From Malacoraja senta (taxonomy: Eukaryota): a stretch of 64,000 nt of DNA. Position 1 is the stretch's first letter; each line of letters starts with the position of its first letter. Below the pieces are notes generated by a model. That model was not told the DNA's origin. It searched no databases and saw only the letters and a list, made by a program, of their open reading frames with translations. Location of the stretch: the NCBI GenBank assembly GCA_038087875.1, contig CM075994.1, positions 5,582,001-5,646,000 on the forward strand, in the 5' to 3' direction. The translations under genes and the position numbers were made by a program. This document shows positions 4,774 to 63,441 of this stretch, one piece after another.

Positions 4774-4809
4774 CGACATCTTTTCGAATTGCTTGTATTT
4801 GTTCTATTT
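4774..4809 (-). CDS. Gene A micro-exon, 36 nt (xIEQIQAIRKDV)
   Basis: Acceptor tttgtttttag, donor g|gtaaga, phase 1-1. Confidence 0.65.
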
Positions 4810-7800
4810 CTAAAAACAAATATAAGCAACAGTTATAATCCTATGTTCCAATGTAAGTGAGTCATGAGTAATCTGAAATGTGTGAGGCATATCATGTGCT
4901 TGGTATAGTTTGTCTATGGACAGTCTATGTACTTTGTCCATTTAAACATCCACTTTTAAAAATACGGTTGTGCAAGATACGTTGACGTCCAAACGTTACC
5001 CATTCCTTCTCTCCAGAGATACTGCCTCACCCGCTGTGTTACTCCAACATTTTCTGTCTACCTTCGACAGAACATAATATTCGCGTGTCCCTTTAGTAGA
5101 GCACTTCCACAGTATTTCACTGTACTTTGAAGTGCATGAATAACGTATTATGTCAGGGTCTTCCAAGTAAGTTTCGTGCTTCAAAGACAACTAAAATAAT
5201 ATATATATTTTTTAAGTTTTGAAAGTGCAATTTCGGGCAAGAAAACCATATTTTGTCCTGGAGAATAGATTCGACTATTCTCAAGAATGTTATCGTGGTG
5301 ACACATTAACACTCTAATACCGCCAATAAAATGCTTCCATTCACTCGGTGTGGAGCCTTGTAGATTATCTGCAAGTGTTTCATGGAAGAACTGCGGCATT
5401 CTGCGCATAGCTGCTTTGCTGTAGAAACCATGCATAACTATCAACCAAAATAACCCATTATTATGTATATGGGCAATTTACCTTCAGCGGTAGAATGGCA
5501 CAACTAGAACAGCCGCTGCTACACAAAGCCTGAGACATGTGATACTGAACTCAGATGTTGTCTGTGTGGAGTTTGGATGTTTTTCTGCGAACTTTCTTCT
5601 CAGTGCACTGGATTCCTCCAACGACCCTTAGCATTTCCAGGATAATATCGTCTGTAAGTCTCCCCCTCCCCCATCCCCAAATTATTGGATGTGGTGATTG
5701 ATTTTAGGCGTGAATACGGTGGGCCGAACTACCTCTTTCCATACTGGATGACGAAGCTCAGTTAATTATTACGTTATACGTCGAAAGAAAATTACGCAAA
5801 GTACAGTAATTATGTATAATACTGGTTTACACGAAGAAATGTGCAGTAAATATGTTGCCTACTTCTTCAGCAATATCATTGCGACTTTTCCATGATTTAT
5901 TTTGCTTTTGTCCATAGAGTCACAATTTTCCGAGAGAACGGTGAATTAACTGCTTTAACACTTAATAAAAACACACCCGTTCTCGTTTCCCGCAACCTTG
6001 TCTCTATGATTAAAACATAAGAAAACAGTTAGCTTTCCCAAAACGTTGCATGACCAACATACTAGCTGATATCTTCTTAGCAAGCATAATAGTTCAGAAT
6101 TTCTTGGAAAACTAGGTAATACAATAGGAAATATCGCACAATATTTGCGAGAATGTTAATATTCACTGGTATGTTTTGCTGATATTCAATTAAATGACGA
6201 GAAAATCGTTAAATAATTCGCCATTTAACGAAACATAATCGCATTGCTACCCTTCTCCAGATGTTCATGACGCTTCATCCCTGCGTTTGCTCGGGTAATA
6301 TGTTTTACTTCGTATTGGGAGGATATTTGTAGCAACACGGTATCATTGCATGATTCGGTAAGCATAATGCGCATTCGTGTTCTTTATTATATAAAACATG
6401 TTCATGTCCTATTTACCAGATTTAATTTGGGAAAAATATAATGAATTTGCATTATATCAAAATATCGTGATTTTTACGAAAACATATTCATTGAAATGTT
6501 ATAGCCGCCTCTTTGGCCAATAATATTCGCTAAATATGTGGCACATATAATTCTACTGGACTAGACGTTCTATTCGATGTTTCCACTAATTTAACATAGA
6601 AACATAGAAACATAGAAACATAGATAATAGACTGAGGACGAGGGCATTTGGCCCTTCGAGCCAGCATCGCCATTCAATGCGATCTTGGTGATCGTCCCCA
6701 ATCAATAACCCGTGCCTGCCTTCTCGCCATATCCCTTGATTCCACTAGCCCCTAGAGCTCTACCTAATTCTTTCTTAAATCCATCCAGTGATTTGGCCTC
6801 CACTGCCCTCTGTGGCAGGGAATTCCACAAATTCACAACTCTCTTGGTGAAAAGGTTTTTTCTCACTTCATTCTTAAATGGCATCCCCTTTATTCTAAGA
6901 CTGTGGGCCCTGGTACTGGACTCGCCCAACATTGGGAACATTTTTCCTGCATCTAGCTTGTCCAGTCGTTTGATAATTTTATACGTTTCTATAAGATCCC
7001 CCTCATCCTTCTGAACTCCAGTGAATACAAGCCTAGTCTTTTCAATCTTTCCTCATATGACAGTCCCGCCCTCCCAGGGATCAATCTTGTGAACCTACGC
7101 TGCACTGCCTCAATCACAAGGACGTTCTTCCTCAAATTAGGATTCCAAAACTGTAGGTAAAGCTCCAGATGTGGTCTTACCAGAGCCTATACAACTGCAG
7201 AAGAACCTCTCTACTCCTATACTGAAATCCTCTTGTTATGAAGGCCAACATTCCATTAGCGTTCTTCACTGCCTGCTGTACCTGCACGCCAACTTTATGT
7301 GACCGGTGTACAACGACACCCAGGTCTCGCTGTACCTCCCCCTTAAGTAACCTAACCCCATTGAGATAATAATCTGCCCCTTAGTTTTTGCCACCAAAGT
7401 GGATAACCTCACATTTATTTATATTATACTGCATCTGCCACGCATCTGCCCACTCGCTCAACCTTTCCAGGCCACACTGCAACCTGCTAACATCCTCTTC
7501 ACAGCTCACACTGCCACCCAGCTTTGTGTCATCCGCAAACTTGCTAGTGTTGCTCCTAATTCCCTCTTCCAAATCATTAATATATATGGTAACTGTTGCG
7601 GCCCCAACACCGAGCCTTAAGGCACCCTAGTCGCCACTGCCTGCCATTCTGTAAAGGACCCGTTCACACCTACACTTTGCTTCCTGTCTGCCAACCAATT
7701 TTCTATCCACGCCACCATCCTACCCCTAGTACCATGCGCTCTAATTTTAGTCACCAGTCTCCCGTGCGGGTCCTTGTCAAAGGCTTTCTGAAAGTCTACA

Positions 7801-10800
7801 TACACTACATCCACTGGCTCCCCTTAATCCATTTTATTGTCACATACTCAAACAAATCCAGAAGATTAGTCAAGCATGATTTTCCTTTCATAAATCCATG
7901 CTGACTTGGACTAATCCTTTTACTGCTATCCAAAAGCCCCATTATTACCTATTTAATAATTGACTCCAGGATCTTTCCCACCACCGAAGTCAGGCTAACT
8001 GGTCTGTAATTCCACGTTTTCTCTCACGCTCCTTTCTTGAAAAGTGGGATAACATTAGCTATCCTCCAATCCGTAGGAACTGATCCTGAATCTATTGAAC
8101 ATTGGAAAATGATCACCAATGCGTCTACTATTTCAAGAACCACCTCCCTGAGGACCCTAGGATGCAGTCCATTAGTCCCCGGGGATTTATCATCCTTCAG
8201 TCCCATTAGCTTGCCCAATACTATTTCTCGCCTAATGAAAATTTATTTCAGTTCCTCGACCACCATAGATCCTCTGTCCTCCAGTACTTCTGTGAGATTG
8301 TTTGTGTCTTCCCTAGTGAAGACAGATCCGAAGTACCTGTGCAACTCTTCTGCCATTTCCTTGTTCCCCATAATAATATTACCCGTGTCTGCCTCCAAGG
8401 GACCCACATTTGACTTTGCTACTCTTTTTCCTGTAACTTATGTAAATAAACCTTTACTGTCCTTCTTCATATTCCTAGCCAGCTTCCCATCGTACTTCAT
8501 CATTTCAGCCCGTGTTGCCCGTTTTGTTTCCTTCTGTTGTCCTAGGAAAGATTCCCAATCCTCTGGCTTCCGGCTACTCTTTGCTGTGTTATACATCTTT
8601 TCTTTTAGTTTTATTCTATCGCTAACTTCTCGTCAACCACAGTTGCCTCCTACTTACCTTTGAACCTTTTCTCCTTTTGGAATGAAATGATCCTGTGTCT
8701 TCCTGGATTATGCCCAGAAAGTCCTGACATTGCTGTTCCACCGTCATTCCTGCTAGTATCCCTTTCCAATCTACCTTGGCCAGCTTCTCTCTCATGCCTT
8801 CATAATCCCCTTTGTTCAGCTGCATCACTGACACTTCCGATTTAACCTTCTCCTTCTCAAATTGCTGATTAAAATTATGCATATGTCATCACTACCTCCA
8901 AGCGGTTCCTTTACCTCGAGTTCTCTTATCAAATCTGGTTAATTGGACAACACTAAATCCAGAATTGCCTTTTCTCTCTTCGGCTCCATTACAAGCCGCT
9001 CTAAGAATGCATCTCGGAGGCATTATCTTTGTTACATGCCAGTTTGAACTCCTGCTGCAACCTATCTTGTTTGAATGTATAATTGTCAGCCTATAATTGG
9101 TTGCTTACACGAATAGAAGTTACCGTAACGTATCGAATTTCCTGACAGGTTTACTTATCAGTCCACTTTTTACTTCATTGTGTTTATTGTCAATATTAAT
9201 CCATTTGCGCCTTTTCCTTGCTAACGTAAATATCACGGCAAGGGGCGTAATGCAAATATATATTTTCGAAAGGACGATTAAAGTTCGCCGTTCTTTCAAG
9301 AACGTCGGATAATTTTGATGACATGCTCTGTACAGAGTAATGTTTGGTTCTTACCGTCTTCTTTCATGTGACCTTCAATGATATCAATAGAGATTACAGT
9401 TACGATTGCAAAAACGAGAGTGCTAACAACAGCGATATTAAGTCACGTGGGGGTAAATGTAATACAACCATATTTAAAAACCGAATACCTTATTGCAATA
9501 CTACTTAAACAAATTGAATAAACATAAGTGTACCTGTCTCTTTATCAGCTGTGAACAGGGAGAAATGTGGCATATAACTATTAAACCATAGCAAGATGCA
9601 TTATTAATTTCAAGTAAGGCACACGGAAAGGAAATACATATAAATGAGAAAGCAACATATGCCCCCTCCACCCACAGAACGAGGTCAATTCTGTTCAAAT
9701 TGTTTACTATTTTCAACAAATTCCAGTGCAGAAGATCAATTATAACAACAAAAGAAAAATGTGGACTGAAATTTACTAGCAAATATCATTACACAAGCGA
9801 AATGGAATACTGAAATTCAGCGAGGATGGTTGCATATAAGAAGATATTTAAGCTTTCAACTTAATTTAAAAGCATGCACGCTCACTTTGATCCCGCAACC
9901 GTCTTTTCAGTTCATCCAACTCTGTAACATCAAAATATCTTTCTGTCAATATGTTCAACAGCGTACCCTTCAATCGCATTATATAAAGCCTTCACCTCTG
10001 GAGCATCACAGAATCAGACAATGCAGTCGTTCTAAAATTCCACGTCTTTCGTTTGACGTTCGCCAATCAGATTCATTCAGAGTCTACAGGATTTATTGTA
10101 TCTCTACCTCAACTCCTTTGTGAGGATTGCAACGTGAATTCTTAACAGGTTTCTCTTCCAGGGAATCTGTATGAACAATATTTGTTTTCGTTCTCTGCTG
10201 ACAGATGTACCGCGAGATCTGTTGAGCTATGCAGTATTTTGCATCGCAAAGTTCCATAATGTATTGTTTGGCTCGTTGGTTCATTCCATATCTCTCCATT
10301 ATAGTATTGCCATTAAAATGCGGTCACCCATCAGTTCCCTGTCAGCAAGACCACGTTCTGCAATTCAATCACGTTCTGACCTATATTGCGAACCAGGCAA
10401 CTGATTTTTTTCTCTCATAATTGCCATGTTTTTTGCGACTTAAATAATTTTCGAAGACGAACACTTCCGAAGAAGGATCAGATGTATGTACCACGGGATT
10501 GGACACCTACGACGTGGATTTATTCTTCGCAGACTGCACTGCTGATGCAATTAATTTCTGGATTTGAATGTCCTTGTGAAAATAAATTTGGCGAGTAGGT
10601 ACAGTGTAATCTCTACTCAAGAACCAGGTCAATGGTTAATTTAAGACTGGTATTACTACTGGTGTGACAGGTATTGATTATATACTTTTTTTTTTAAAGT
10701 AAATGGGTTCGAAGTCATCATTTGAATTTTGGCGACAATTTTTTGTGCTGAATTGGTAAGTCAAACCCGAAACATTGCCAATTATTTCCCTTCCGTGATG

Positions 10801-13800
10801 ATATCTATCCCGCTGACTTCCTCCAGCGTTTTGTATCTTTGGTCAGGCACATGAGTTCGTCACGCTCCCTTCAACAGACAAATGGCGCTATATCGATTAT
10901 CGATAAAACTATATTACAATTGAGTTTTCCTGACAAAATACCCTGCCTAGGTTCAGTGCCGAATTTTCATCTTACCAAAAAAATAGCCTCGAACCTATTC
11001 TGTCGTCGAATCCGTTAACAACATTTGTACTTTTGGAACAACACTGATCTTCAATGCCTTCATATGGTGTTAGAATCTATGGAAATAACTGTCAATCTGA
11101 AGTCTGATAGATTTTTTTTCTGAGGCAGGATCTCCATTCAACGTTAACAGCTATCGGTCTGTCTCGTCGTCATCGAAGATTTGGTGCCTCCAAGTTTATC
11201 TTGTTGCGTAGGAAAAACAACAATCTATGTATTTGTAAGATAAACCACCCCTTTTTATACAACATAGAAACATAGAAACATAGAAAATAGGTGCAGGAGT
11301 AGGCCATTCAGCCCTTCGAGACTGCTTCGCCATTCAATATGATCATGGCTGATCATTCAACTCAGTATCCTGTACCTGCCTTCTCTCCATACCCCCTGAT
11401 CCCTTTAGCCACAAGGGCCACATGTAACTCCCTATTAAATATAGCCAATGAACTGACCTCAACTACGTTCTGTGGCAGATAATTCCGGAGATTCACCACT
11501 CTCTGTGTGAAAAATGTTTTTCTCATCTCGGTCCTAAAATATTTCCCCTTTATCCTTAAACTGTGACGCCTTGTCCTGGACTTCCTCAACATCTGGAACA
11601 ATCTTCCTGCATCTAGCCTGTCCAACCCCTTAAGAATTGTGTAAGTTTCTATAAGAACACCTTAAATCTTCTAAATTCTAGCGAGTACAAGCCGAGTCTA
11701 TCCAGGCTTTCTTCATATGAAAGTCCTGACATCCCAGGAATCAGTCTGGTGAACCTTCTCTGTACTCCTGCTATGGCAAGAATGTCTTTCCTCAGATTTG
11801 GAGACCAAAACTGTACGCAATACTCCAGGTGTGGTCTCAACAAGTGGTGTGGTACAACTGCAGTAGAACATCCCTGCTCCTATTCGCTTTCTTCACTGCC
11901 TGCTGCACCTGCATACCTACTTTCAATGAGTGGTGTACCATGACAGCCAGGTCTCGTTGCATCTCCCCTTTTCCTAATCGGCCACCATTCAGATAATAGT
12001 CTACTTTCCTGTTATCCCATCAATGTGGATAACCTCACATTTATCCACATTATACTGCATCTGCCATGCATTTGCCCACTCACCCAGCCTATCCAAGTCA
12101 CCTTGAAGCCTCCTTGCATCCTCCTCACAGCTAACACTGTCCCCCAGCTTTGTGTCATCCGCAAACTTGGAGATGTTGCATTCAATTCCCCCGTCCAAAT
12201 CATTAATATATATTGCAAATAGCTGGGGTCCCAGCACTAAGCCTTGCGGTACCCCACTAGTTACTGCCTGCCATTCTAAAAAGGACCCGTTTACTCCTAA
12301 TCTTTGCTTCCTGTTGCCAGCCAGTCCTCTATCCACATAAATACTGAACCCCCAATACCGTGTGCTTTAAGTTTGTATACTAATCTCTTATGTGGGACCT
12401 TGTCGAAAGCCTTCTGAAAGTCCAGATATAACACATCCACTGGTTCTCCCTTATCCACTCTACTAGTTACATCCTCGAAAAATTGTATAAGATTCGTCAG
12501 ACATGATTTACCTTTCGTAAATCCATGCTGACTTTGTCCAATTATTTGACCACTTTCCAAATGTTCTGCTAAACAATCTTTAATAACTGACTCTAGCAGT
12601 TTCCCCACTACCGATGTTAGATGAACTGGTCTGTAATTCCCCGTTTTCTCACTCCCTCCCTTTTTAAAAAGTGGTGTTACATTAGCTACCCTCCAATCCT
12701 CAGGAAATACTCCAGAATCTAAGGAGTTTTGAAACATTATCACTAATGCATCAACTATTTCTGGAGCTACTTACTTACGTACTCTGGGATGCAGCCTATC
12801 TGGCCCTGGTGATTTATCGGCCTTTAATCCATTCATTTACCTAACACCACTTCCCGGCTAACCAGGATTTCACTCAGTTCCTCCATCTCATTTCCCCCGC
12901 GGTCCCCTGCTATTTCCGGCAGACAATTTATGTCTTCCCTAGTGAAGACAGAACCAAAGTAGTTATTCAATTAGTCTGCCATGTCCTTGTTCCCCATGAT
13001 CAATTCACCTGTTTCTGACCGCAAGGGACCTACATTTGTTTTAACTAATATTTTTCTCTTCGCATATCTATAAAAACATATGCAGTCAGATTTTGAGTTC
13101 CCTGCTAGTTTTCTTTCATAATCTATTTTCCCTTTCCTACTTAAGCCCTTTGTCCTCCTCTGCTGGACTCTGAATTTCTCCCAGTCCTCTGGTTGGCTGA
13201 TTTTCTGGCTAATTTGTACGCTTCATCTTTTATTTTGATACTATCCCTGATTTCCCCTGTTATCCACGGATGCACTGCCTTCCCTGATTTTCAAATACGT
13301 GCCAAAATAATTTGGTGATCATGTCTCTCTTCACCACCCAAGAGTACAAATAATTATTTTTAAAATAGCCATGCAAATTAATATATTACCAACATCTTTT
13401 TTGCGAATATCGCTTTCTGCAAGAAAAAAAACTTTAACATAATACCGTTCAGCAAGGGTTTCTAAAACAGTTGGATACACAATCATCCTTTTTTTCTCTT
13501 CCCATCTATTTTTCTTTAATAATACACAGGAAATAAAAATCGGGATGAATGCAAAGTGGTACATGTATTCATTTTTTGCTGCGATAATACCACTATCTTA
13601 TTAGTACGCAAATATTGTCCATTGGCTGATCGTCCGACCTTTAATTAGCCATGCAAGAGTCTTCATTGATTTGTAAAACTCACAACACCAATTTGTGTAT
13701 GTGTGTGTGTGTGAGGGCATTTTTAAAAATTGATTTCGAAGTGACTTGTGCATTTTAATGTTTTTGTGGAATATTTGGAAGATAAGGAAGCTTTAATATA

Positions 13801-16800
13801 AAATGACTATGAAATATACTGAGAAACTTTCCTGTTTCGAAATGTCCGACAAAATTACGGTCTTATTATCCCCGAACTGCTTATAGGATATAGATATCAG
13901 CACGAATGATCTCTGCCTGAGATTAAAATAAATAATGTGAATCTAAAAGAATAAAAAAAATGTTCTACAAACTGCAAGTTGTTTTTCAGCATGATCACAT
14001 GGCTCTTAAGCCCGTGCACTGTAAAGTCGCAGATCTGTCTATGACGTTAACTCAAATTACCTAAAATTAAGTAAACATCCATCCCCGCCAACAGTACTAT
14101 TTTATCGAGTTGAACCTGTTTCTGCTAAGTACTGTCGCTTGTTTCTTTACTTGGAGCTTTAAACATTTCCAGATACATTTCTCACCAGAATCTTGCAAGT
14201 TTTCCTTCAATGTATTTATTTCTGGAAAATAAAAGAATAATAACGACGGTTGAGTCATTTATGTTCTTATCACAGCTAACTTATGAAGATGAATCTGTTT
14301 GTGACATAAATCTGGATGTACACATGATTTTCTTTATTCACTTCGTCTGTTTTATGAACTCAGGAAGAACGTGCAATTCCTGATCTATTTCGTTCGGTTT
14401 GTTGAATCAAATTATCACATAAATATGTAGGACAGCTTTCCATTGCATTTAACTCATGGTATCTGATGTCAATGTAAAATCATACACATCAATTTTGCAG
14501 GTATTTCCAAATCGAAAACGATGTATTATCTATCCCAGTCTATCACGTTCAGACTTAGGTATTTTATTTTGTCCAATATTATGGTCTTAATATTTGAGTG
14601 TATGAAAAGGCACTTGATGTTTTCAGTCGCCGCTTTATTATGTTTGATCATGTATTTGTGAATGTGGTTTTCTTACTATAATATCGAAAAGTGTATTGAC
14701 ACATTTACATCAATTGATATATTTCAAGTGTCTGGCAGTTTAAGCCTATTATTAGCCATGTCAGCAATCCATTGGACCATAGAGGATGTTCAGTCGTATG
14801 TTATCAACGATATGATATTTGAGGTATATTTGTTACTTAAGAAGGCGCTTCCCTTCGCCCGCTGTAACCTCGCACGTGGAGGGAATTGATTAATTATCCC
14901 TTCCACCCATATCGGATGTGTTAACAGCCAGGACAAAGGCGAATCAGTACCGACATGCAGCATAATTGAGCTGTCAAGGGCCCTATATAGAAGCATTGTG
15001 GAAGCTAATATTATGTTTGCTGTTTTATGCGCCCGTTTCATGGCCGAGGAAGGCATACGCATGAAATAACAGATTTAACTAACAAAGATATTTTCATCAC
15101 CATCTCAAGTGATATCTTGGAAATAAATTTAGGACTGGATTATGTGGTTAGAAATAGTCAAAGGTGAAAATGATTGGAGAATTCAACAACATATACTGCA
15201 AACTGAGTGCGAAATCGTTCTAACTTCACAGTATATCAGATTGCAGGTCGAATTTGGCTGCAGAACTGTGATATATATTCTGCATTCTGCAATTTTCCCT
15301 TTGATCTGTCTTTTGGACTTGTTTGACGTCTGCATTTATGTATGTTTCATCTGATGTCTTCGGATAGCATACAAATAAAACATCACTTAACCTCGGTGCA
15401 AACATCAAGAATAAAACCAAATCTCTCTGAAAGCGTTTGTGTGGTCAATTATGAATGAGTGTTTCATTTAAAATTTAACAGATGAGCCGCTGTAGGCCAT
15501 CGATGCTTAGTGGTCTTGACGGAATCAACATTATTGGAGAAAGGCTCATGTCAGTGGTCTAGTAAATTAAACACCAGACCACGCTGGTGGACAGGCTGAA
15601 CTGGCATTCCTTGGAAATGATTTTGAAAGATAATGGATAAATCAGGGAAGTGCTCCGTTATTGGAATAACTCTATAGTTAACGCATTAGCTTTTAGTCTA
15701 ATTAATTAGGATATCCTCTGTACTAATTGCTTAGATTGAAACAAGCAGGCTGTTTACTGAATAATGTCTATTCTTTTTATATTCCTGTCCAGGAAGGACA
15801 TTAAAAGGCTGTAAATTTATTGTTAGAGAATATAATATCCTTGGAACAACAAAGCCAGGAGAATGCAGATTGTATCTTCTAGCTGGCACCATGGACTTTT
15901 GTCACGGTTCTCTATGCAAGCTTACATTTTCCAATCCAATTAAGTTACACTCGCACGTTATGAATCGCAAACCACGAGAGTATAAATTAATACACGTTGT
16001 CATAATTAGTTTTACTCTATGAGGATGTCGGTGAAATTAACCACTTTTTCTTACCTTTATCTTTTAGAAGAAGTTGCCTCACTGGCAAAAAAAAAGAACA
16101 AACCAATTGTAAACATGCTGTCTTATAAATTGTCACCATATCAAAGTTGTATACATAATTGTCTTAAATTATACAATCAGTCAAGGCATGATGAAGTGAT
16201 TCGCAGACCGGAGCAAAATCTGTGTTTATATTATTGGAGGATTGTATTTGATTCTAAATATAAGCGGCGTTGCGGGACATACATCAAACTAAACGTCACA
16301 GCATGGAAGTAAGGATACTATTAAGAACGCTTTTGCTGTAGTAAACCATTTCCATTATAGCGTTCTATCATAATAACTTTACGAAGTAGAAATGTACATT
16401 AAGGTGTGGAATGGATAATGGAATGGGTATGCATTTCTTTGCACCTCAAAACCCTCCGTAGCCAATCATTCTCATCCTTTGACACGGGGACAGGAAAGCC
16501 GTTGCGAATCCAGCCGCGGTTTGCATTTTGTGAACAGCCTGGTCACCGCGACCGCATTCTCTCGAAAGGCGGCTCGGAAGTTATGTTGGAAAGCGATCTT
16601 TATTTACCGATGAATGTCAATTAGATGAGAGCAATGAATGAAGTGCAGCTGGCAGCTGAGCGAAATCCCGAACATTCTCGCTTCAGTGATCAGTCTGCAT
16701 CACTTGGGTTCGGTACATGATGAAGGGCAAAGAGGGGGTCAGGTACATTTGCTCATCCAGTTGCTTGTCAACATGCAGCTAACAAGCATTTTCACCGTGC

Positions 16801-19800
16801 TAAGCTAATTGCTAATATCCCACAGACGATGGGAATCTCCGATGTCATTTATCAGCTTTATTTATGTTTTTACTTTTTGAGGTACAGCGTGAAAACAGGT
16901 CTTTCAGTTCACCGAATCCACCGAATGACCGCCATCGGTACCCAGTCGCACTAGTTCCATGTTTCCGCACTTACATCTCCACAACCTGCTTAGAGGGAGC
17001 AATTTACAGAGGCCAATTAACCTGCAAACCCGGACGACTTTAGGATGTGGGAGGAAAACGGAGCATTTGAAGGAAAATCATGCGGTCATTGGTAGAGTAT
17101 GCACAATCCACACAGACAACGCACGATATCAAGATCTAACCCAGGTGTCAGGCACATTAAAGCATGAATTCAACCAGCTGCGCCACCGTGCCGCCCTGTG
17201 CCATTTTTTTCGGAGACAGCCGGTCGATAGGTACTAAATTGCGCATGGAGTAAATGAGGTCCTTGAGGAGTATAAAGAATGTAAAAAGTATCTTAACAAA
17301 TACATTAGAAAAGCTAAAAGAAGATATGAGGTTGCTTTGGCAAGTAAGGTGAAAGTAAATCCAAAGGGTTTCTACAGATATATTAATAAGAAAAGGATAA
17401 CATTTGTCCATTAGAGAGTCAGAGTGGACAGCTATCTGCAGAGTCAAAAGAGATGGGGGAGATATTGAACAATTTATTTTCTTCGGTATTCACCAAGGAG
17501 AAGGATATTGAATTATGTGAGGTAAGGGAACCAAGTAGGGTAGCTATGGAAACTATGAGGATCAAAGAAAAGGAAGTACTGACACTTTTGAAAAATATGA
17601 AATTGGATAAGTCTCCAAGTCCTGACAAGGATATTCCCTAGGACATTGAGTGAAGTTAGTGTAGAAATAGCAGGGGCTATGACAGAAATATTTCAAATGT
17701 CATTAGAAACGGGAATGGAGCCGGAGGATTGTCGTACTGCGCATGTTGTTCCATTGTTTAAAAAAGGTTCAAAGAGTAAACCTGGAACTTCCGGTGGGGG
17801 CGGCAAGTTGGAGTAGTCGCACTTTTTCCAGCTCCCGACCTTTTCACCTCCAACTTTTATTACAGCTCAGTCTAAGTTTTTTAACCACCCACAAACATTT
17901 AAACATCATTGTGAGTACCTCTCTATGCTGTAAAGATGCCAAACAAAGGAAAGAAAGCGGAGCAAAAGACAGAAAACCCGGCGACCAGCACCAGCACCAG
18001 TATGGCCACGCTAGCAGCCATGTTAACAGAACATAAGGTATTGTTACTGGCAGAATTCAACACTGCGTTTACCAAATTGGAAAAGAAGCTGGACAATATC
18101 CAGACCACTATGCTAGACCACCAACACCGTCTCTCGTCATTAGAGTCTTTCGCCGCTACCACTACCCAAGATATACGAGCTTTAACGTCAATGTTAACTA
18201 CGGTGACCGAAGAGAACGCCAAGCTAAAGGCTAAGCTTATCAGCCTGGAAAGTAGGAGTCGCCGAAATAACATAAGGATAGTGGGTCTTCCAGAGAATAT
18301 CGAGGGCTCCCAAACAACAGCGTTTTTCTCTCAATTTCTGCTCGAGACTCTTGGTGAGCACATACTGGAATCAGCCCCGGAGCGAGACCGAGCCCACCGT
18401 ACGCTAACAGCCAAGCCAAGCCCTGGTGAGAAACCCAGAGCAGTTGTGATCTGCTTTCATAGATACCAGACCCGTGAGTTGGTGGTACGTGAGGCTCGGA
18501 GGCAGAGGGGTAAGCTGAAATACAAAGATACCCCGTTCCACATTTTCGAAGACTACTGTCCCGAGATAGTTGAACAACGCTTCGCGTACCGAGACGTTAT
18601 GAAGGAGCTGTATAACCTGGGTTTCAAACCCTCCCTTCATTATCCAGCCAAGCTGTTCATTACGTCCGGGGAGGGAAAGAGGCGACGACTAACATCTCCC
18701 GAGGACGCTCGGGATTTCATCTCATCTTACCGTCGACGCAGACCGGGACCCACAGATGACTGACTTCGTTCAGTACGTCTATATTCGAGTGGCACAGGGG
18801 CACGGTTAACCTATGGTTACATGGACTAACTTTAGCTTGACTGTTCCTAATATCTAGCTAAGGTTAGCGTTCAGCATTGCTGATTATGTTAGACCCCGGC
18901 TTCGAAATGTATGAGGCTGGTAAGAAATCATCAGGATTTGCGAATATTTTATATCAACTTTTTCTTATATTGTCTGGGTGTGACCATGCTTGAGGGGTCC
19001 CTCACCAGCATATGCTATAAAGCTGGGCTTAAGGGACCCACTTTGTGGTTTGTGATTTGGTCTCTGCCTTTCTGTTCTTAGCAGCTGGCCGCTAACGCTG
19101 TCAGCACCTGGCTAGTTTGTTTATACTAATCTTCATAATGAACTGTCTGGGGCTGATAAGAGCTCATTACAGCCAGGACTGTGTTATACAAATCTTATTT
19201 TATACCTTTTTTGTTTAACAAAACATAATTGATGCCTTTGGCGTTGCGCCCTAATCCAACAGCCCAGTTTGTAATTTGCTAACTTCACCAATGCTAACTC
19301 TCTCTTTATACTTTGTCGATTTTAAGACATACTATGCAACACCAAAGGAAGTTATTCTGGCTCCACTTACACGCTAACCGGTTTACTTAGTATCACCATT
19401 TTGTTAATAGGCTTTGTCTTATTGTGACTATCATCATTGCTATTATTACTATTAGTGTTAGCAATGGTACTGGCAGTACAACCATTATGATTATTATTTT
19501 AACCTTGCATTTATCAATGTATGTTTATCTTACTTCATTCCTATTCTCTGTTTTTCATATTATTATCATCATCGTTATTATTACTATTACTATACTTATT
19601 TTATTTCATGTTACATTATCGACACTGAGTGACTCCGTCGCTTTGGGAAGCTGTGATATAGGGAGTTAAGATCGGATATCTCCATGCGGAAGCGAGGACA
19701 ACGCACCTTGGTGCAATGGGCACTTAAGGTTCAGTTGACACATGGGGGATCTCAGGTCTGGAGACTCAGGTTTGAAAGATGGTTAAATGAAATGTGTCCC

Positions 19801-19893
19801 ACTTGTTTGTCGTGTGTATATGTTTTTGTTCTTGTTTTTTTGTTTTTTTGTTTTTGTTTTATTTTACTTCACATATATATATATATATGTATG

Positions 19894-19928
<35 letters not shown>

Positions 19929-22900
19929 CCCCCCCCCCCTCCATATCCCCACTCTTGGCAGCTGGTTTCGATGCGCTCTTCCGTCGCGTTCTGCAGAACT
20001 ACAGTGCATTACCCATATAGCTAAAAATGGCCAACACAAACGATACTCTTAGATTTGTCTCGTGGAACGTGAGAGGGATGGGAAGTCCTACCAAAACTGA
20101 CAGGATCTTGGCCCATTTGCAACAGCTCAAAGGCGATATATTCTTTATCCAATAGACCCACCTTCGCAACAGAGAGGTAACACGGCTTAAGAGAGGCTGG
20201 ATTTGTCAACTATTTCACTCGAAATTTAATAATAGGGCTAGGGGCACCGCTATCTTGATTCGTAAGAACATTAAGTTCGAACCACAGAAAACTGTGGAAG
20301 ACCCTGCTGGTCGCTTTGTCATGGTGTCGGGCAAACTGCAAGACACACCTGTCATATTGGCAAGCATTTATGGACCCAACTGGGATGACAGCTCATTTAT
20401 AACTAAATTTTTTACATCTCTCCCAAATATTGAAAATCACCATGTCATTGTGGGTGGACATTTTAATCTGGTCCAAGATCCTATACTGGATAGATCTTCG
20501 AATAAAGCCTCTACTTTAACTAAATCCGGTAAGACTCTGCGTGTTCTTGCCAAACAACTGGGGCTCACAGATCCATGGAGATTTATATCCCCCACGACTA
20601 AATTATTTTCATTTTTCTCCCATGTACATCGTACGTTTACCCGTATAGACTTCTTTCTCTTAGATAATAGATTGCTCTCCAAAATCAAATCCAGTGAGTA
20701 CCATAGCATCGTAATATCAGATCATGCTGCGACCTCCCTGGATCTTCATTTTTGTAAACGAACTAACCCTTTAAGTGGAGGTTCAACTCCTTATTAAAAT
20801 AAAACTATTAGCAGAGGCTCACTACATGCAATTCTTGCACTCTCAAATCACCCTATATTTTGAGCTGAATGACTCGCCGGACATAGAAAAGAGGTATACT
20901 TTGGGAAGCTTCAAAAGCTTATATTAGGGGCCAACTCATTTCCTTTATCTCCAACCTGAAAAGAACCGAGACGTTCCAAACGGCAGATCTGTTACAAAAA
21001 AATAAAGGACATTGATGACAAATATGCATCCGACCCAAACCCTAATCTCTATAGAGAACGCCTTAGGCTACAAACAGACTTTGACCTCATATCCATTAAC
21101 AAAGCCAAACTACGACTGCTTAAATCTAGGCAACACTTTTTTGAATCTGGGGATAAAGCTGGAAAGCTCTTGGCCCATCAGGCCAGAACAGAGGCGACTT
21201 CACGGCTAATTCCAGCCATTAGATCCAGCTCAGGGGAGACTCATACTGATCCTCTCAGAATTAATGAAGCATTTGCTAAATTCTACACTGAATTATACAC
21301 TTCCGACTGTCCCCCCACTGCAGGTGACATGTTCAGTAGTATGAGGCTTCCTCGAATTTACGAAGAAGCTATGAGAGACTTGGGTGGTCCCATAATTGTA
21401 GCTGAGGTCCAAGCAGCCATCACATCGCTGCAAAGCGGAAAGTCACCCGGCCCTGACGGCTTCTCCGTAGAATATTACAAAGCTTTCTCTGACCTCCTTG
21501 CACCAGTCCTGAGAGATATGTATAATGAGGCGTTTTTACACCGTCGCCTACCGCCCACCTTGTCGTGGGCTACCATCTCCCTAATTCTTAAAAAGGAGAA
21601 AGATCCCCTGCTTTGTGGTAGCTATAGACCAATCTCGCTCCTGAATGTGGACCTCAAAATCCTTTCTAAAGTTCTTGCGCTTCGTCTTCAGCAAGTGATG
21701 CCCTCTATTATCTCGTTGGATCAAACAGGGTTTATACCTGGCCGACAGTCTTCCCATAATACTAGGCGTCTCCCTTAACATCATTCACTCTTCGAGTAAT
21801 GAGACCCCGGAAATGGTGGTCTCCCTCAATGCCGAAAAGGCCTTCGACAGGGTTGAGTGGAGGTACCTTTATGAAGCGATGGATAGGTTGGCCTCGGCAA
21901 CAGTTTTATTCTCTGGGTGAGCCTATTATATTCGTCTCCGGTGGCCTCAGTACAAACAAACGACATACTGTCGCCCCACTTCACACTTCAGAGAGGTACC
22001 AGACAGGGTTGCCCGTTATCTCCACTCTTGTTTGATGTCGCGATAGAACCCCTGGCGGTCTGGTTACGCGCAGAGAAGGGCTTTGAAGGTATTACACGGT
22101 TTGACACAACTCATAAAGTCTCATTGTATGCGGATGACCTGCTCTGTACATCTCGAACCCAGTCAGTTCTCTCCCTGTGATTATGAATATTTTAGAACGG
22201 TTTGGTGCATACTCTGGTTATAAACTTAACTACCAAAAGAGTGAGCTACTACCGATTAACTTACCGGCTAAGCAGCTCCCTCGCTCTTTAACCTCATTCA
22301 AAAGGGCAGAGGATGGGTTTCGCTATCTCGGCGTTTTTATCACAATACCCTTATCTGATATGTTCCGCACAAACTTTTTGCCTCTGGTTGAGAAAGCCGA
22401 AAAGGATTTTGATCGCTGGTCAGTCTTACCTCTATCCCTCGTGGGCCGGATAAATCTGGTTAAGATGGTTGTCCTACCCAAATTCCTGTATCTTTTCCAA
22501 CATATCCCCATACTTATCACCAAATCTTTTTTTGACAAATTAGAAAGGACAATATCTAAATTCATATGGGGTAGCAAACCGGTCAGAATCCGAAAGGCGA
22601 TACTGCAGTCTCCTAAGTGTGATGGCGGTTTGGCCCTCCCTGATTTTAGGCGATACTACTGGGCAGCTAACTTGCAAAAAATCCTGTATTGGATGAATGA
22701 TGATTGCGAGCACCCACCGATCTGGGTATACATGGAAAAGGCGAGTTCACGTCTCCCATTCCGGTCTGTCTTAGCTCCCAACTCCCTCTTTCTATAACAT
22801 CTGTGGGTGCAGGCCCAATTGTGTCCCTTTCGCTCAAGATATGGTGCCAATTTAGGAAAAACCTCGGTTTACAGGGTCCTTCCATCTTGACCCCACTGCT

Positions 22901-25900
22901 TAAAAATCACATTTTTAAAACCTTCAAGTATAGACCACGCATTTAAAAACCTGGCATAGCAATGCATCAGTAGTATTAAAACCTATATAAGGATGGTATC
23001 TTCTCATCTTTCGCGGAGCTCTCGTCTAATTACAACCTCCCAGCCTCCCACCTTTTTCGGTTTTTCCAGATTAGGGACTTTGTGAAGAAGACATTTCCCT
23101 ACTTCCCAAATCGCCCTCCTGAAACCCTGACCGATATCATCTTAGCTTTAGACCCCAATCGGAAGAAATGCATCTCTATTTTATATAATTTGCTAGGGTC
23201 GGTTTTAATGAAACCTCATACCTCATTAAAAGCTGTGTGGGAGGGAGAGCTGAATACGCAATTAACAGACCAGCAATGGGACTCTGTCTGGATTTGACCC
23301 ACTCTTCTTCTATATGCGCTCGTCATGGCCTAATCCAATGCAAAGTCCTTTACAAAGTCCACTATACAAATGTAAGATTGGCTAGATTGTACCCAGCTGT
23401 CAATGACACCTGTAACAGATGTAGTCAATCTCCCGCCAACCATAGCCACATGTTTTGGTCTTGCCCTAAGCTAGCAGCCTTTTGGAGGAGTGCTTTTGAA
23501 TTGATAAGTAGAGCTTATGACCAGACTATTCTTCCAAATCCAATGTCAGCCATTTTCGGTACCCCTCCTAATACCAACCTCTCTGTTGCGGTGAAACGGT
23601 CCTAGCTTTTACAACCTTGTTAGCCCGGAGACTGGATCTTGCTTAATTGGAGGCTCACCTGTCCCCCGACACACGCCCGTTGGATTAAAGAGGTGCTCTA
23701 CAATCTGAAACTTGAAAAACTTAGGTTCTCTCTCAAAGGTTCTATCAAGACATTCCTAGATACATGGAACCCTTTCCTTGAATTGGTTAACTCTCTTACC
23801 TTGTCCCCGGACTCGGAAGAGGACTGAGTGTTCTCCATCATCGTTTTGTTCTACAGCAGCTGCTTTCCCCTTAACCTCCCCTCCCTACAATGGTTTATTG
23901 AGATATAAACGTATATGTATATGTATGTCTTAATGAATTTAGAAAAAATATTGATTGAGATTTTTATGTATATATATATATATATATATATTTTTATTTT
24001 TTTTTTATTTTTATTTTTTATTTTTTTTTTTTTTTTATTTTTTTTATTTTTATATAGCACATTTTGTTTCGTCTATTCTACCATTTGTGTGTGGATGTGT
24101 ATGTATGTGAGTGCTGTTTGTCCTCGTTTGGCTCCGACCTGACTTGGGTGGGTTGAGGGTGGGTATGGGTAAGGGTTTTGAGGATCGCTTACATACTGTT
24201 GTACAATTATGCCTTGATTATTACTGTCCGTTATTATTGTATGTATGTAAATTGCCGTGAAATTCAATTAAAAATTGTTTATTTAAAAAAAAAAAAAGAA
24301 ACAAAGAGTAAACCTGGCAATAGTAGACCTGTTAGTTTGACGTATATGGTGGGCAAATTAATGGACAGGATATTTATAGATAATATATATAATCATCTGG
24401 ATAAACAAGGTCTGATTAGGAACAGGCAACATGGATTTGTGCCTGGAAGGTCATGTTTGAGTAAGCTTCTTGAATTTTTTGAAGAGGTTACTAGGGAAAT
24501 TGATGAGGGTAAAGCAGTGGATATGGACTTCAGTAAGGCCTTTGACAAGGTTCCACGTGGAAGGTTGGTTAAGAAGATTCAATTGTTGGGTATTAATAGT
24601 GGAGTAGCAAGATGGATTCAACAGTGCCTGAATGGGAGATACCAGAGAGTAATGGTGGATAACTGTTTGTCAGGTTGGAGGCTGGTGACTAGAGGGGTGC
24701 CTCAGGGCTCTGTGTTGGGTCCACTGTTGTTTGTCATATACATCAATAATCTGGATGATGGTGTGGTAAATTGGATTAGTAAGTATGCAGATGGCACTAA
24801 GATAGGTGGAAATTGTGGATAATGAAGTAGATTTTCAAATTCTACAGAGAAATTTAGGCCATTTGGAAGAGTGGGCTGAAAGATGGCAGACGTAGTTTAA
24901 TGCTGATAAGTGTGAGGTGCTACATCTTGGCAGGACAAATCAAAATAGGATGTACATGGTAAATGGTAGCGAATTGAGGAATGCAGTTGAACAGAGCGAT
25001 CTAGGAATTACTGTGCATAATAATAATAATAATGGATGGGATTTATATAGCGCCTTTCTAATACTCAAGGCGCTTGTGCATGGTTCCCTGATGGTGGGAT
25101 CTCATGTAGATAGGGTGGTAAAGAAAGTTTTTGGTTTGCTTACCTTTATAAATAAGAGCATTGAGTATAGAAGTTGGGATGTAATGTTAAAATTGTACAA
25201 GGCATTGGTGAGGCCAATTCCGGCGTTTGGTGTACAATTTTCGTCGCCAAATTATAGGAAAGGTCAATAAAACAGAGCGAGTACAGAGGAGATTTATTAG
25301 AATGTTGCCTGGGTTTCAGCACCTTAGTTACAGAGAAAGGTTGAACAAGATAGGTCTTTATTCTTTGGAGCGCAGAAGGTTAAGGGGCGACTTGATAGAT
25401 GTCTTTAAAATTATGAGAGGGATAGACAGAGTTGACGTGGATAAGCTTTTTCCATTGAGAGTAGGGAAGATTCAAACAAGAGGACATGATTTGAGAATTA
25501 AGGGACAAAAGTTTAGGGTAACATGAGGGGGAACCTCTTTACTCAGAGAGTGCTAGATGTGTGGAATGACCTTCCAGTGGAAGTGGTGGAGGCAGGTTCG
25601 ATTTTATCATTCAAATATAAATTGGATAGGTATATGGACGGGAAAGGAATGGAGGGTTATGGTCTGAGTGCAGGTAGATGGGACTAGATGAGAGCAAGTG
25701 TTCGGCACGGACTAGAAGGTCCGAGTTGGCCTGTTTCTGTGCAGTAATTGTTATATGGTTATATGGAAAAGGAGAACATGGCTTAAAACATCACAATGGG
25801 CATTACCATAGACAAACGCAGCACCTAAAAAGATTTTCACGATCCTCCACTCCTGTGATCTTGCGCCGTTTTCAAATCCAGTTGTGATGTTATTAGTATA

Positions 25901-26534
25901 TAAGCTTGTAAGGCTTTGAGCGGGTTTCTACATCCCTCAATTTGCAGTTTTTTTTCCTGCATCTGTATGTTCCCCTAATGCACGGAAATATTTCTGTGAA
26001 CCTAAACTGATTGACCAGCAAAGTAATAGGAGTGTGATAAAAGTTCGAGGGGCTCTATATAAAGAAAAATTAGTGTAATAAAACAACTAGAAAAATTCTA
26101 CAGGTTCCGAGAATAACTTGTGATATGTCAGGCGGATAGATTGCTTACAAATGATGTGCAAGGGAAACGCACGCTTTCAGAGCATAAACATGGAGGCAGA
26201 AAGCAAGAAGCGCCGAAGACCAGTTTATTTCTATCTGACCAAGAAGGAAATACATTACCTCTTTGCAATGCATCCCCTACCACTCCTATGTCTGCATACA
26301 TCAGATATAGGCAGGATTTTACGAATGTGGATTTAGAAATATAGCTCTATCCACACCAGGAAACGAATATATATTAAATATCATGTAAAAATTACTTTCT
26401 CAATTGTGCGACGGAGGTAATGTAACACAGCTTATATTTGCATCAATAGCGTCATTGTGCGGGCATTTGCTCACGCATTTAATTAAATTACATTCTTAAT
26501 TGCTTACGGGTATCTTGTAGAAGTTTTTTGAATT
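4774..26534 (-). CDS. Partial multi-micro-exon gene A (coiled-coil tail, butyrophilin/BG-like architecture; hypothetical)
   Basis: Six strong AG/GT-bounded phase-1 exons of 27 or 36 nt: 26508-26534, 16055-16081, 14186-14221, 13390-13416, 9886-9921, 4774-4809. Weaker 15-18 nt candidates: 25807-25824, 9534-9548, 9355-9372, 9124-9141. Spliced frame is open: xFKKLLQDT..xRQLLLKDK-EINTLKENLQDS-ESDIRKKDV-ELDELKRRLRDQ..xIEQIQAIRKDV. Confidence 0.7.
6594..9020 (-). mobile_element. CR1 LINE, 5'-truncated, degenerate ORF2
   Basis: RT motifs DFQKAFDK and SKFADDTKLGG; (catagaaa)n tail. Confidence 0.9.
9886..9921 (-). CDS. Gene A micro-exon, 36 nt (ELDELKRRLRDQ)
   Basis: Acceptor ttttgatgttacag, donor gtgagc, phase 1-1. 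Confidence 0.7.
11262..13290 (-). mobile_element. CR1 LINE, 5'-truncated
   Basis: NYRPVHLTS, QHGFTKGKSCLTNL, GVPQG and KFADDTKL motifs; (catagaaa)n tail. Confidence 0.9.
13390..13416 (-). CDS. Gene A micro-exon, 27 nt (ESDIRKKDV)
   Basis: Acceptor ttttttttcttgcag, donor g|gtaata. Confidence 0.7.
14186..14221 (-). CDS. Gene A micro-exon, 36 nt (EINTLKENLQDS)
   Basis: Acceptor cttttattttccag, donor g|gtgaga. Confidence 0.7.
16055..16081 (-). CDS. Gene A micro-exon, 27 nt (xRQLLLKDK)
   Basis: Poly-T acceptor ending gccag, donor aag|gtaaga; 21/27 identical to the plus-strand exon 63415-63441. Confidence 0.8.
16870..17200 (-). mobile_element. tRNA-derived V-SINE/HE1-type SINE
   Basis: Head ggcggcacggtggcgcag with the conserved body. 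Related copies at about 31010-31270, 31790-31950, 35300-35560, 39290-39575, 45330-45520, 50610-50840, 54985-55290, 56865-57165, 60775-61060, 61180-62110 and 63210-63390. Confidence 0.7.
17936..18763 (+). CDS. L1 ORF1p (Transposase_22-type coiled-coil/RRM/CTD), intact, 275 aa
   Basis: LESRSRRNNIRIVGLPE, RAHRTL and IFEDY motifs. Confidence 0.9.
   Translation: MPNKGKKAEQKTENPATSTSTSMATLAAMLTEHKVLLLAEFNTAFTKLEKKLDNIQTTMLDHQHRLSSLESFAATTTQDIRALTSMLTTVTEENAKLKAKLISLESRSRRNNIRIVGLPENIEGSQTTAFFSQFLLETLGEHILESAPERDRAHRTLTAKPSPGEKPRAVVICFHRYQTRELVVREARRQRGKLKYKDTPFHIFEDYCPEIVEQRFAYRDVMKELYNLGFKPSLHYPAKLFITSGEGKRRRLTSPEDARDFISSYRRRRPGPTDD
20027..23827 (+). pseudogene. L1 ORF2 (APE endonuclease, RT, Zn knuckle), disrupted
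   Basis: SWNVRG, RIDFFL, ISDH, KSPGPDGF, YRPISLLN, GTRQGCPLSP, YADD and CNRC..H..WSC motifs; nonsense codon near 20153 and several frameshifts. Confidence 0.9.
25019..25074 (-). mobile_element. 56-bp 3' end of an L2-tailed SINE inserted in CR1, 7-bp TSD
   Basis: Matches the 3' end of the SINE at 31333-31673; TSD tgtgcat at 25012-25018 and 25075-25081. Confidence 0.85.
26508..26534 (-). CDS. Gene A micro-exon, 27 nt (xFKKLLQDT)
   Basis: Acceptor ttgttatgtcattcag, donor gtaagc; first 13 nt are 11/13 identical to exon 60571-60597. Confidence 0.65.
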
Positions 26535-27499
26535 CTGAATGACATAACAAGAAAATAATTATATGTATAATATGTACATTAATCCGTTTGCGCTGGTTGC
26601 GCACAATACTGACACACACGCACATTTACACAAACACACAAACACTTGCACGTGCATCGACAAAATAGTACACATTAGGCACCCCGTATCCGATATTATT
26701 TCCCACATGTAAACATTAATACATGGTTTATTAAATTTCGACGAAGCGACTCTCATAAAGCACATCAATTTGGTTCCAAGAAATGTAAATCCAGCTCCAA
26801 TGATTGTTATTAAATGCTCTCATGCCCGGTCTTTATAGTCCTCATGTTTGTCTTCCATTCCTTTTCAAGAACTCACAAACATCATCATAATTTAACTGTG
26901 CTCAATTCCAGTTTCGTCAAGACATTCAATTCCACGGCATGCACCAACATTTATCCATGGTATGGACAAATGAAATTATCTTCAGGATACAAATAAAATG
27001 AATTATCTCTTTTCTGGAAGTCTTGAGGAAGGGATGGGACAATATAGCATTACGTTGAGTGACGTGATTCTATGAAACTGTTCAGTATTTGAACTGAATC
27101 GCTTCACAAAGAACGTTGATATTTGATGATAGATTTCGTGAAAGAATGATCTCATGATGAATGTCCCCTTAAAAATTGAGGACTGCAGTTTCGTACATGC
27201 CATTAGTCAACCGGTATGTTGCTGCAATTCAGAAAGTGCGTATCCAAGCCACCACATAGGTAACCCTTAAATCACGACAGAAATCGATTTAGGTCTGAAG
27301 AATTGGTTCACATTGACAGTGATAGCGAAAACAAGGAATGCAGTATCTCTAATTGATTTTATCTTGTAGATAATAATCCGGAGACCAGACTTTTGGAAAA
27401 TTAGCAGTCAGTCAGTCTGTTTTAATGACTACACTAAAACACGCATTGACCGTCAAATTGGTAGCAACATTGTTCTCCGCGGTACAGTTGTACTTCTAC

Positions 27500-29620: not shown

Positions 29621-30742
29621 TTCGTCATCAGTTATACAGTCAAGAGATATCAGCTCGAGATTTGAAAAATTGTCCATGGGAAACTGATAGCATCATGGCA
29701 AAATAAATCGACTCCATGTCAATGAACTACTCTTCTCGTACACGCGGCTGATAATTCATTCGACTTAAATGAGAACATGCTCAAAATGTGTGGTTATCCT
29801 TCACGATGTAATGATCTATATAATTCCTCCTCAAACAAATAAAGAATCAAGTAAATTTGAAAACAACAGAAGCATGTGAATGCATCTCTTTGTGGAACGA
29901 TCATATCAAGCCTTTGTCTTGCACACAGCTTTATGTGTCAATCCATTTCTAAAACTGTCATTTCTATCCTCCAGACTTTTCGAAAGCACTAGACTGAAAG
30001 AAGGGTCTAACCTTGCTGATTACGAAATTGCAAAGCAGTCCTAATCCACTGGAGAGATTATTGACAACTATAGCGTGTGCAAAAATACTGAAGGGGGTAA
30101 TGCCCGGTGGTTCAAAGAGGTTCCAAAGATATCTCCGCATGTGTCCGTGTGACCGTAAAATGTTCCACCATGGTAAGACCAAATCAAACATTTCATTTTA
30201 AAGTGACTTGCATTGAAACGGTTAATAAATGGGTGGCTGTCCGTAGATTCCGTCAGCTTGAAAATCCACCGGGCTGCAAAGAGTACCCACAGGCAGTGCT
30301 GATTTCGTGTTCTAGCTTTATTTTCGGATGTCCATATTTTGTCTTGGCTCTTTTGTGAAGTCTTCGGATAATTTAATTAAATCATATTGATCAAGAAGGA
30401 TATTAGAGTAGGGTAGATATCTAGTTGATGTAACAAAGATGTGGGTCCCAGGCGCAGTAACGCTCGAATGAAAAAAAAGCCTCTAAATTCTCTTTAGTAA
30501 AATGTAAAACTCACAAAATTCTCTAAATGTAAAACTCTACGCATATTAGAGAGAGGTTATCGACCAGGCCAATGTGACCACGATCCAGTTATTTGCCATG
30601 ACCGATATAATGTTGGAGATATTTCAATAAATCAATTAAAGATTACAGATTCGCGGTAAACTTGGTAACCGCCGCTTTATTTGTTTTACTACCGGAATCA
30701 ATACAACTTTGGTCCAAAGATCGATTGCCAACCACATTGCGG

Positions 30743-30942
30743 NNNNNNNNNNNNNNNNNNNNNNNNNNNNNNNNNNNNNNNNNNNNNNNNNNNNNNNNNN
30801 NNNNNNNNNNNNNNNNNNNNNNNNNNNNNNNNNNNNNNNNNNNNNNNNNNNNNNNNNNNNNNNNNNNNNNNNNNNNNNNNNNNNNNNNNNNNNNNNNNNN
30901 NNNNNNNNNNNNNNNNNNNNNNNNNNNNNNNNNNNNNNNNNN
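30743..30942. other. Assembly gap (200 N)
   Basis: Run of N. Confidence 0.95.

Positions 30943-32358: not shown

Positions 32359-63441
<31,083 letters not shown>

Follow-up and report, generated by a model that had tools for sequence, protein, structure and literature searches.

What do the short, evenly sized open segments on the minus strand of this stretch of the skate Malacoraja senta encode, and how do they stand to a similar array on the opposite strand? The stretch, which we call the window, covers 64,000 nt of scaffold C18 (CM075994.1:5,582,001-5,646,000; negative window positions lie to the left of position 1) in an assembly of 1.94 Gb and 6,182 contigs. An earlier sequence-only reading had described six minus-strand exons of 27 or 36 nt in phase 1, weaker candidates of 15-18 nt and a single open frame through all of them, and had taken the array for a divergently arranged paralog within a gene cluster. 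We propose, with a probability of roughly 0.6, that the minus-strand gene is a member of a chondrichthyan family whose 27- and 36-base exons are spliced into a long, probably soluble coiled-coil rod, ending in a B30.2/SPRY domain in several relatives. The proposal builds on the exons themselves, their shared phase, their tandem duplication, the agreement of exon order with shark and ray proteins, a period of 3.5 residues and the B30.2 exon of a neighboring gene. Nine micro-exons lie in the window, compared below with paralogous copies at 4.997 and 3.79 Mb of C18:

26508-26534, minus strand: micro-exon of 27 nt, phase 1; counterpart in the 4.997-Mb paralog, 93% identity including flanks
16055-16081, minus strand: micro-exon of 27 nt, phase 1; counterparts in both paralogs
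14186-14221, minus strand: micro-exon of 36 nt, phase 1; counterparts in both paralogs
13390-13416, minus strand: micro-exon of 27 nt, phase 1, weak donor; counterparts in both paralogs
9886-9921, minus strand: micro-exon of 36 nt, phase 1; counterparts in both paralogs
9534-9548, minus strand: micro-exon of 15 nt, phase 1, weak; counterpart only in the 3.79-Mb paralog
9355-9372, minus strand: micro-exon of 18 nt, phase 1, weak acceptor; counterparts in both paralogs; aligns with a shark-protein motif
5977-6003, minus strand: micro-exon of 27 nt, phase 1, outside the six named earlier; counterparts in both paralogs
4774-4809, minus strand: micro-exon of 36 nt, phase 1; the chain runs on to the left to about window -158,400

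Each of the six exons named earlier is flanked by AG and GT, with a pyrimidine tract present, and all six reported peptides translate between these boundaries. Of the weaker candidates, those at 9534-9548 and 9355-9372 gained support: they, together with 5977-6003, have AG/GT-bounded counterparts of the same length in the paralogous copies. Spliced in order, the nine exons give 82 codons that are open in the phase-1 frame only, with stops in the other two frames, as the claim of a single frame had it. When strong exons were called with a generic splice-site model, five strong 27/36-nt exons were found on the minus strand to the left of a scaffold gap at 30743, versus none on the plus strand, and 30 dinucleotide-matched simulations of this part yielded a mean of 0.1 and a maximum of one; to the right of the gap, 12 were found on the plus strand versus none on the minus. 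Judged by these features of the sequence, the nine segments are likely coding exons.

How far does the gene extend? In both directions the chain leaves the window and runs into breaks in the assembly:

30743-30942, no strand: scaffold gap of 200 N; the minus gene resumes upstream on unplaced contig C4996 (39,200-130,062)

Leftward, the chain is followed by another gap at C18:5,410,966, and the window itself holds a second 200-N gap at 58101-58300. The first 10 kb of C4996 is 99.9% identical to C18 from window -8,465, its positions 30,001-39,199 are 99.6% identical to window 21,547-30,742, and past the gap position it adds 90.8 kb of further minus-strand exons. A 4.4-kb alignment block (84%) against the gap-free paralog at 4.998-5.002 Mb spans the gap position. 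By these alignments, at least 90.8 kb of the minus gene is absent from C18 at the gap. C4996 and C18 together hold 63 candidate exons, and for 58 of these one or more paralogs contain an open counterpart of equal length between AG and GT; one 33-nt candidate recurred on both strands as a piece of a long interspersed nuclear element and was removed. The minus gene then comprises at least 57 paralog-supported micro-exons over approximately 290 kb (32 of 27 nt, 16 of 36 nt, and the rest of 15-33 nt), and all 57 are in phase 1 with a length that is a multiple of three. The encoded chain is rich in K, E, L, and D, and, with G as the last base of 52 of the 58 exons, the codons at the junctions are mostly acidic. 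Hydrophobic residues recur with a period of 3.46-3.52 (3.46 in the minus-gene chain).

Conservation in related species was evident in the window peptide, whose 82 residues are 42% identical over 85 columns to Scyliorhinus canicula XP_038671246.1, with exon order kept, and 43% identical to Narcine XP_069775425.1. No exon-order shuffle among 300 reached the observed score for XP_038671246.1, XP_038671249.1, or XP_069775425.1, nor did any of 300 residue shuffles for XP_038671246.1. XP_069775425.1 is also matched, in its C-terminal part, by another array at C18:3.51-3.52 Mb. The B30.2 exon of the plus-strand gene in the right part of the window leads to the same family: it retrieved Narcine bancroftii XP_069775385.1 (63%), a 372-residue coiled-coil and SPRY protein whose N-terminal part matches plus-gene exons in order. 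The Narcine coiled coil retrieved catshark XP_038671249.1 (945 aa, coiled coil plus SPRY), and a search with that protein led to models from S. torazame, Narcine, Hemiscyllium, Cetorhinus, Rhincodon, Callorhinchus, and Leucoraja. The two arrays share their shark and ray matches and encode modules of one family, and to this extent the earlier claim of paralogy stands. The models considered here are:

Family models from Scyliorhinus canicula: XP_038671249.1, XP_038671246.1, XP_038672308.1
Family models from other species: XP_072329362.1 (S. torazame); XP_069775384.1 and XP_069775425.1 (Narcine bancroftii); XP_042191566.1 (Callorhinchus milii)

These automated shark, ray, and chimaera models carry the same repeat modules in the same order and are the actual family of the skate arrays, filed under unrelated names (A33-like, golgin-like, TRIM39-like, TRIM58, uncharacterized), among which "zinc-binding protein A33-like" and "TRIM39-like" seem to have been given on the strength of the B30.2 domain alone. 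All are far shorter than the coding potential of the skate field. SPRY was found in 11 of 14 family proteins scanned, and RING, B-box, TRIM_CC (PF25600), and immunoglobulin (Ig) families in none of the 14, in a scan where PF25600 did match conventional TRIMs. No membrane helix was found in 10 family proteins (largest 19-residue hydropathy 1.48 versus 3.17 for a butyrophilin control). The family B30.2 domains form a clade (100/100) apart from the butyrophilin and TRIM rows, with all named members chondrichthyan, in a tree of 28 rows picked from matches that leaves a TRIM versus a butyrophilin origin of the domain undecided. The AlphaFold model of the Narcine protein consists of four long helices with short linkers and a beta-sandwich (mean predicted local distance difference test score 73.6, predicted template-modeling score 0.47).

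Is the pair of arrays in the window an isolated cluster? A search of the flanks recovered many further copies, in a cluster far larger than had been supposed: a micro-exon field at approximately C18:3.05-6.02 Mb, about one quarter of the 11.9-Mb scaffold, with exons on the plus strand to 4.42 Mb, on the minus strand from 4.635 to 5.61 Mb, and on the plus strand beyond. Across 1,444,596 bases scanned in full, 228 strong 27/36-nt exons lay on the coding strand versus nine on the opposite strand. Nineteen 10-kb samples from 3.05-4.43 Mb gave 53 versus 0 (17 of the 19 were positive) and seven from 4.665-4.90 Mb gave 15 versus 0; 11 samples beyond the field limits gave no strong 27/36-nt exons. Approximately 296 strong exons were counted in the field, and by extrapolation the total would be about 500. 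Within 1,061,598 bases, strong AG-GT pairs numbered 93 coding versus 2 opposite at 27 nt and 71 versus 5 at 36 nt, and the phase-1 frame was open in 163 of the 164 coding-strand strong exons of these lengths.

The minus array has close copies at C18:4.91-5.34 Mb (minus strand, approximately 84% intron identity), 3.75-3.91 Mb (plus strand, 66-73% intron identity), and 5.73-6.02 Mb (plus strand, 73-78% identity to C4996). Single exons and blocks have also been duplicated in tandem, as in a run of five 27-nt exons resembling one another (window -83 to -96 kb) and in repeated exon pairs at 89-98 kb in the plus gene. Several structural features accompany these copies. At C18:5,346,200-5,346,500 on the minus strand, approximately 26 kb including a B30.2 exon is missing relative to the plus-strand copy, and the two array types are directly joined. 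A 28-kb direct duplication of 99.6% identity flanks an N gap at C18:3,547,488-3,603,891 and is probably an uncollapsed contig overlap; the gap at C18:5,946,618 is flanked by a similar doubled stretch. Unplaced contig C4537 (39,000-40,600) is 68-69% identical to the array at C18:3.95 Mb and represents either a further copy or a missing continuation. Within the window, an 8.6-kb insertion at 17178-25767, absent from the 4.996-Mb paralog, holds L1-type ORF1/ORF2 fragments (plus strand, approximately 17.9-23.6 kb) nested in another repeat element, and a 2.1-kb decayed reverse-transcriptase element at 27492-29635 on the minus strand is absent from the 4.998-Mb paralog.

Paralogy and clustering both hold, whereas the proposed divergent arrangement is not supported. 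The two arrays meet at the 200-N gap, beyond which C4996 carries more of the minus gene, and because the gap cuts both arrays, their head-to-head spacing of approximately 6 kb is an artifact; the paralog of the plus gene also has one further upstream exon. Introns of the two arrays do not align with each other except in repeats, and each array has nearer copies elsewhere on C18 (intron identity 84% and about 66-70%); compared in this way, the two are old paralogous modules. Elsewhere the B30.2-bearing type is followed by the minus-array type in tandem on the same strand, as seen at 3.65-3.91 Mb (gap-free) and at 5.61-5.94 Mb (with internal gaps), and a third stretch keeps a remnant of this order. 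With gaps on either side, at 4.43-4.45 and 5.61 Mb, the minus-strand block may be a scaffolding inversion. We also considered the plus and minus arrays as the 5' and 3' halves of one mis-scaffolded copy and rejected this, given that the plus gene has a B30.2 exon of its own and that the array downstream of this exon, only 73-78% identical to C4996, is another copy.

The neighbor on the plus strand provides the family with its terminal domain in this genome:

32359-63441, plus strand: related gene with 15 predicted micro-exons of 24-36 nt, phase 1
C18:5,710,011-5,710,531, plus strand: terminal B30.2/SPRY exon of this gene, outside the window; phase 1, after a 30-nt exon

The terminal exon encodes PRY/SPRY (PF00622, E 6.5e-12), is 70% identical to its paralog at C18:3,733,604, and has BTN3A1/3A3 as its best solved relatives, slightly ahead of TRIM58 and TRIM21. 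With 150 of 660-680 candidates scored, B30.2 exons of the family subtype were found twice on C18 and three times on C5 (15.35, 17.41, and 17.44 Mb). On C5, 27-nt phase-1 exons lie upstream of the 15.35-Mb exon and none within 10 kb upstream of the other two; one of the C5 exons has a near-identical match in a protein of Leucoraja erinacea (terminal branches 0.028 and 0.008). Between converging micro-exon arrays, at C18:4,551,700-4,559,600, sits a conventional RING/B-box-B30.2 TRIM gene, and more conventional B30.2 exons lie at C18 6.5 and 9.8-11.6 Mb and on unplaced contigs. Motif and tblastn searches of the sequence examined, for Ig, lectin, RING, and TNF-type exons, gave only B30.2 exons and one conventional TRIM among the matches listed.

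How would such a gene work? We propose that splicing would join the micro-exons end to end into a long segmented coiled coil. Because each exon is a multiple of three and in phase 1-1, exons could be skipped, duplicated, or lost without a frameshift, and rod length and surface charge would vary among copies and isoforms through exon gain, loss, and skipping. A 27+36 pair (9+12 residues) would amount to three heptads with the register kept, whereas skipping one 9-residue exon alone would shift the heptad register. RefSeq lists five isoforms of the plus-gene orthologue in Narcine, set apart by in-frame blocks of 6 and 9 residues and by how they begin; in two of them an identical initial residue pair is joined to different downstream exons. 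By analogy with the tails of chicken BG proteins, the rods may dimerize, and they might conceivably act in the cytoplasm as scaffolds or spacers, displaying B30.2 domains with avidity. The minus gene could be a rod-only partner in such a system or could reach a B30.2 exon in unassembled sequence. An immune role, suggested by the B30.2 domain and the churn in copy number, is a guess.

Does comparison between copies indicate that the exons are maintained? Among 46 minus-gene exons examined, 35 align to the distant paralog, with AG kept in 34 and GT in all 35, a flanking intron identity of 73%, and a ratio of nonsynonymous to synonymous substitution rates (dN/dS) of 0.49; of 29 aligned to the closer paralog, 28 keep AG and 27 keep GT. 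In the reverse test, the minus copy retains AG 38/38 and GT 38/38 for exons of the distant paralog and 21/21 for those of the closer one, with no stop in either set. The plus gene and its paralog share 26/26 acceptors, with dN/dS of 0.48.

Several results weigh against the proposed family membership and rod. Seven of the 35 exons aligned to the distant paralog differ in length there and one has a stop, dN/dS against the closer paralog is 0.73 (29 exons) and 1.2 in the reverse direction (21 exons), and the paralog of the plus gene keeps only 19/26 donors; on these comparisons splice sites are conserved and amino-acid constraint is only moderate. That the 551-codon chain contains no stop is partly built in, as only open exons were admitted to it. 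Exon-order shuffles reached the observed score in 1, 6, and 17 of 300 for three other relatives, and the relatives in databases are automated models. Searches for the first and the last exon of the minus gene gave no convincing candidate for either, and no subfamily B30.2 exon was found for the gene as assembled among the 150 candidates scored. No RNA entry was listed for window 9000-17000, and no transcript of the minus-array locus was seen in contigs from four presumed-RNA runs, which cover essentially only repeats and are uninformative either way, as is their record at the B30.2 exon (0/4).

Might the array be part of something larger? It is doubtful, in our assessment, that the 3-Mb field is transcribed as a single unit or a small number of units of megabase scale, in which several hundred in-frame micro-exons serve as cassettes, B30.2 exons are optional ends, and splicing yields rods of widely varied length and surface that act as a diversified intracellular sensor or scaffold; if this were true, the schistosome micro-exon genes would have a vertebrate counterpart in the field, and the BG/butyrophilin tail an ancestor or offshoot without the head. 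We regard as unlikely the direct alternative to a separate paralog, in which large parts of the field are transcribed together, the B30.2 exon serves as a terminal exon that need not be used, and the minus array forms the distal portion of a gene of megabase scale. The minus-array homologue of the gap-free copy does begin approximately 18 kb past the B30.2 exon on the same strand, keeping its splice sites and lacking the conserved block that precedes the array in other copies; another copy has lost the stretch with the B30.2 exon, and 17 of 19 samples of the plus field at 3.05-4.42 Mb carry same-strand exons. In two copies, however, the B30.2 exon is separated from the following array by a conserved block of 1.45 kb with an observed/expected CpG ratio of 0.9, whose conserved strong donor could mark an independent first exon. 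The annotated relatives, moreover, are proteins of 213-945 aa filed as separate genes, and some arrays are set apart by exon-free stretches of tens of kilobases. The 1.45-kb block, at C18:5,734,581-5,736,035 and 5,334,681-5,336,150, is also a candidate non-coding first exon for genes of the minus-array type.

The minus exons could also encode the cytoplasmic tail of a BG/butyrophilin-like membrane receptor, whose exons for the signal, the IgV domain, and the transmembrane segment would fall in sequence not assembled or not read; this we judge quite unlikely. Small in-frame heptad exons, 13-36 of them, make up the tails of chicken BG proteins (PMC4046983), the closest solved structures to the B30.2 exon are the butyrophilins named above, and the 5' end of the minus gene itself is unassembled, such that the absence of IgV and IgC rests on the family proteins. 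Against this, none of 39 butyrophilin-type IgV matches (150 of 210 candidates scored) and none of 40 IgC matches (150 of 181 scored) lay on C18, and five butyrophilin queries matched only B30.2 exons in the approximately 1.8 Mb searched; no family protein scanned has an Ig or membrane segment, and the catshark and electric-ray models begin at about the same module. That the minus copy is a decaying duplicate, its exon pattern inherited from a functional ancestor and its translation lost, is very unlikely: the dN/dS of 0.73-1.2 against the closer paralog, several weak splice sites, large retroelement insertions in its introns, and the lack of a terminal domain found for it would fit, but 57 exons with intact AG/GT and open frame over approximately 290 kb, and the complete, stop-free retention in the reverse test, argue otherwise.

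How, then, does a rod-encoding family of this kind compare with known systems? Chicken BG genes encode a coiled-coil tail in 13-36 exons of 21 or 24 nt, and a soluble form of the tail (zipper protein) and splice variants that truncate it have been described (PMC4046983, PMC5938342, PMC8813856). As far as the passages of these papers available to us go, the skate family resembles BG in being a tandem multigene family with a long heptad coiled coil, many tiny exons with a split first codon, and exon numbers that vary among genes, and BG tails are likewise altered by alternative splicing. The same passages give BG exons of 21 (24) nt, IgV and a membrane helix ahead of the tail, and no B30.2, whereas the exons of the minus gene are mostly of 27/36 nt and number at least 57 over approximately 290 kb; Ig and membrane domains were looked for and not found, and B30.2 ends some family members. 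Chicken BG genes lie within or beside the major histocompatibility complex. In a search for such linkage here, which could not be shown, 0/88 class I matches (most were on unplaced contigs) and 0/17 proteasome matches fell on C18, and class II alpha was matched nowhere. Butyrophilins (BTN/BTNL) share the order of heptad region then B30.2, which holds for the plus gene and 11/14 relatives, with no B30.2 exon found for the minus gene, but they differ in having IgV, IgC, and a membrane segment, and in a heptad region of a few repeats rather than hundreds of residues. Butyrophilins with variable heptad numbers have been reported in cartilaginous fish (PMC12841164), and the passages of that paper available to us do not describe the skate micro-exon family.

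TRIM-B30.2 proteins offer the likeness of an apparently soluble coiled coil with PRY/SPRY, and many conventional B30.2 exons share the scaffold. Unlike TRIMs, the 14 family proteins have no RING, B-box, or TRIM_CC match, and the one place where TRIM queries hit a RING exon, 4.55 Mb, lies outside the arrays; the family B30.2 sits in its own clade, distinct from both butyrophilins and TRIMs. The schistosome micro-exon genes consist, in the portion of the literature available to us, mainly of symmetric exons of up to 36 nt that can be skipped in frame, and their products are parasite proteins exposed to the host and described as schistosome-restricted (PMC8293314). The likeness, mostly symmetric exons of at most 36 nt, is one of architecture alone, with no homology claimed; as to variant transcripts by exon skipping, the predicted Narcine RefSeq isoforms skip blocks of 6 and 9 residues. 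Within the literature we could reach, which did not extend to subscription papers and was in part seen as passages, we found no paper describing this chondrichthyan coiled-coil/B30.2 micro-exon family. The family may best be seen as a variant of the BG/butyrophilin/TRIM coiled-coil-B30.2 design, real at the level of sequence and predicted at the level of RNA, which current annotation splits into misnamed fragments across about a quarter of a scaffold. The BG-style design of tiny symmetric exons encoding a coiled coil would then be present in cartilaginous fish on a far larger scale, with a unit of 9/12 residues and, in some members, the B30.2 domain that BG lacks. If expressed as predicted, the family would offer a tractable case for the splicing and diversification of micro-exon arrays, and would bear on how the cytoplasmic tails of butyrophilins and BG arose and on the "orphan B30.2" idea put forward for BG in the passages available to us (PMC8813856, PMC5938342).

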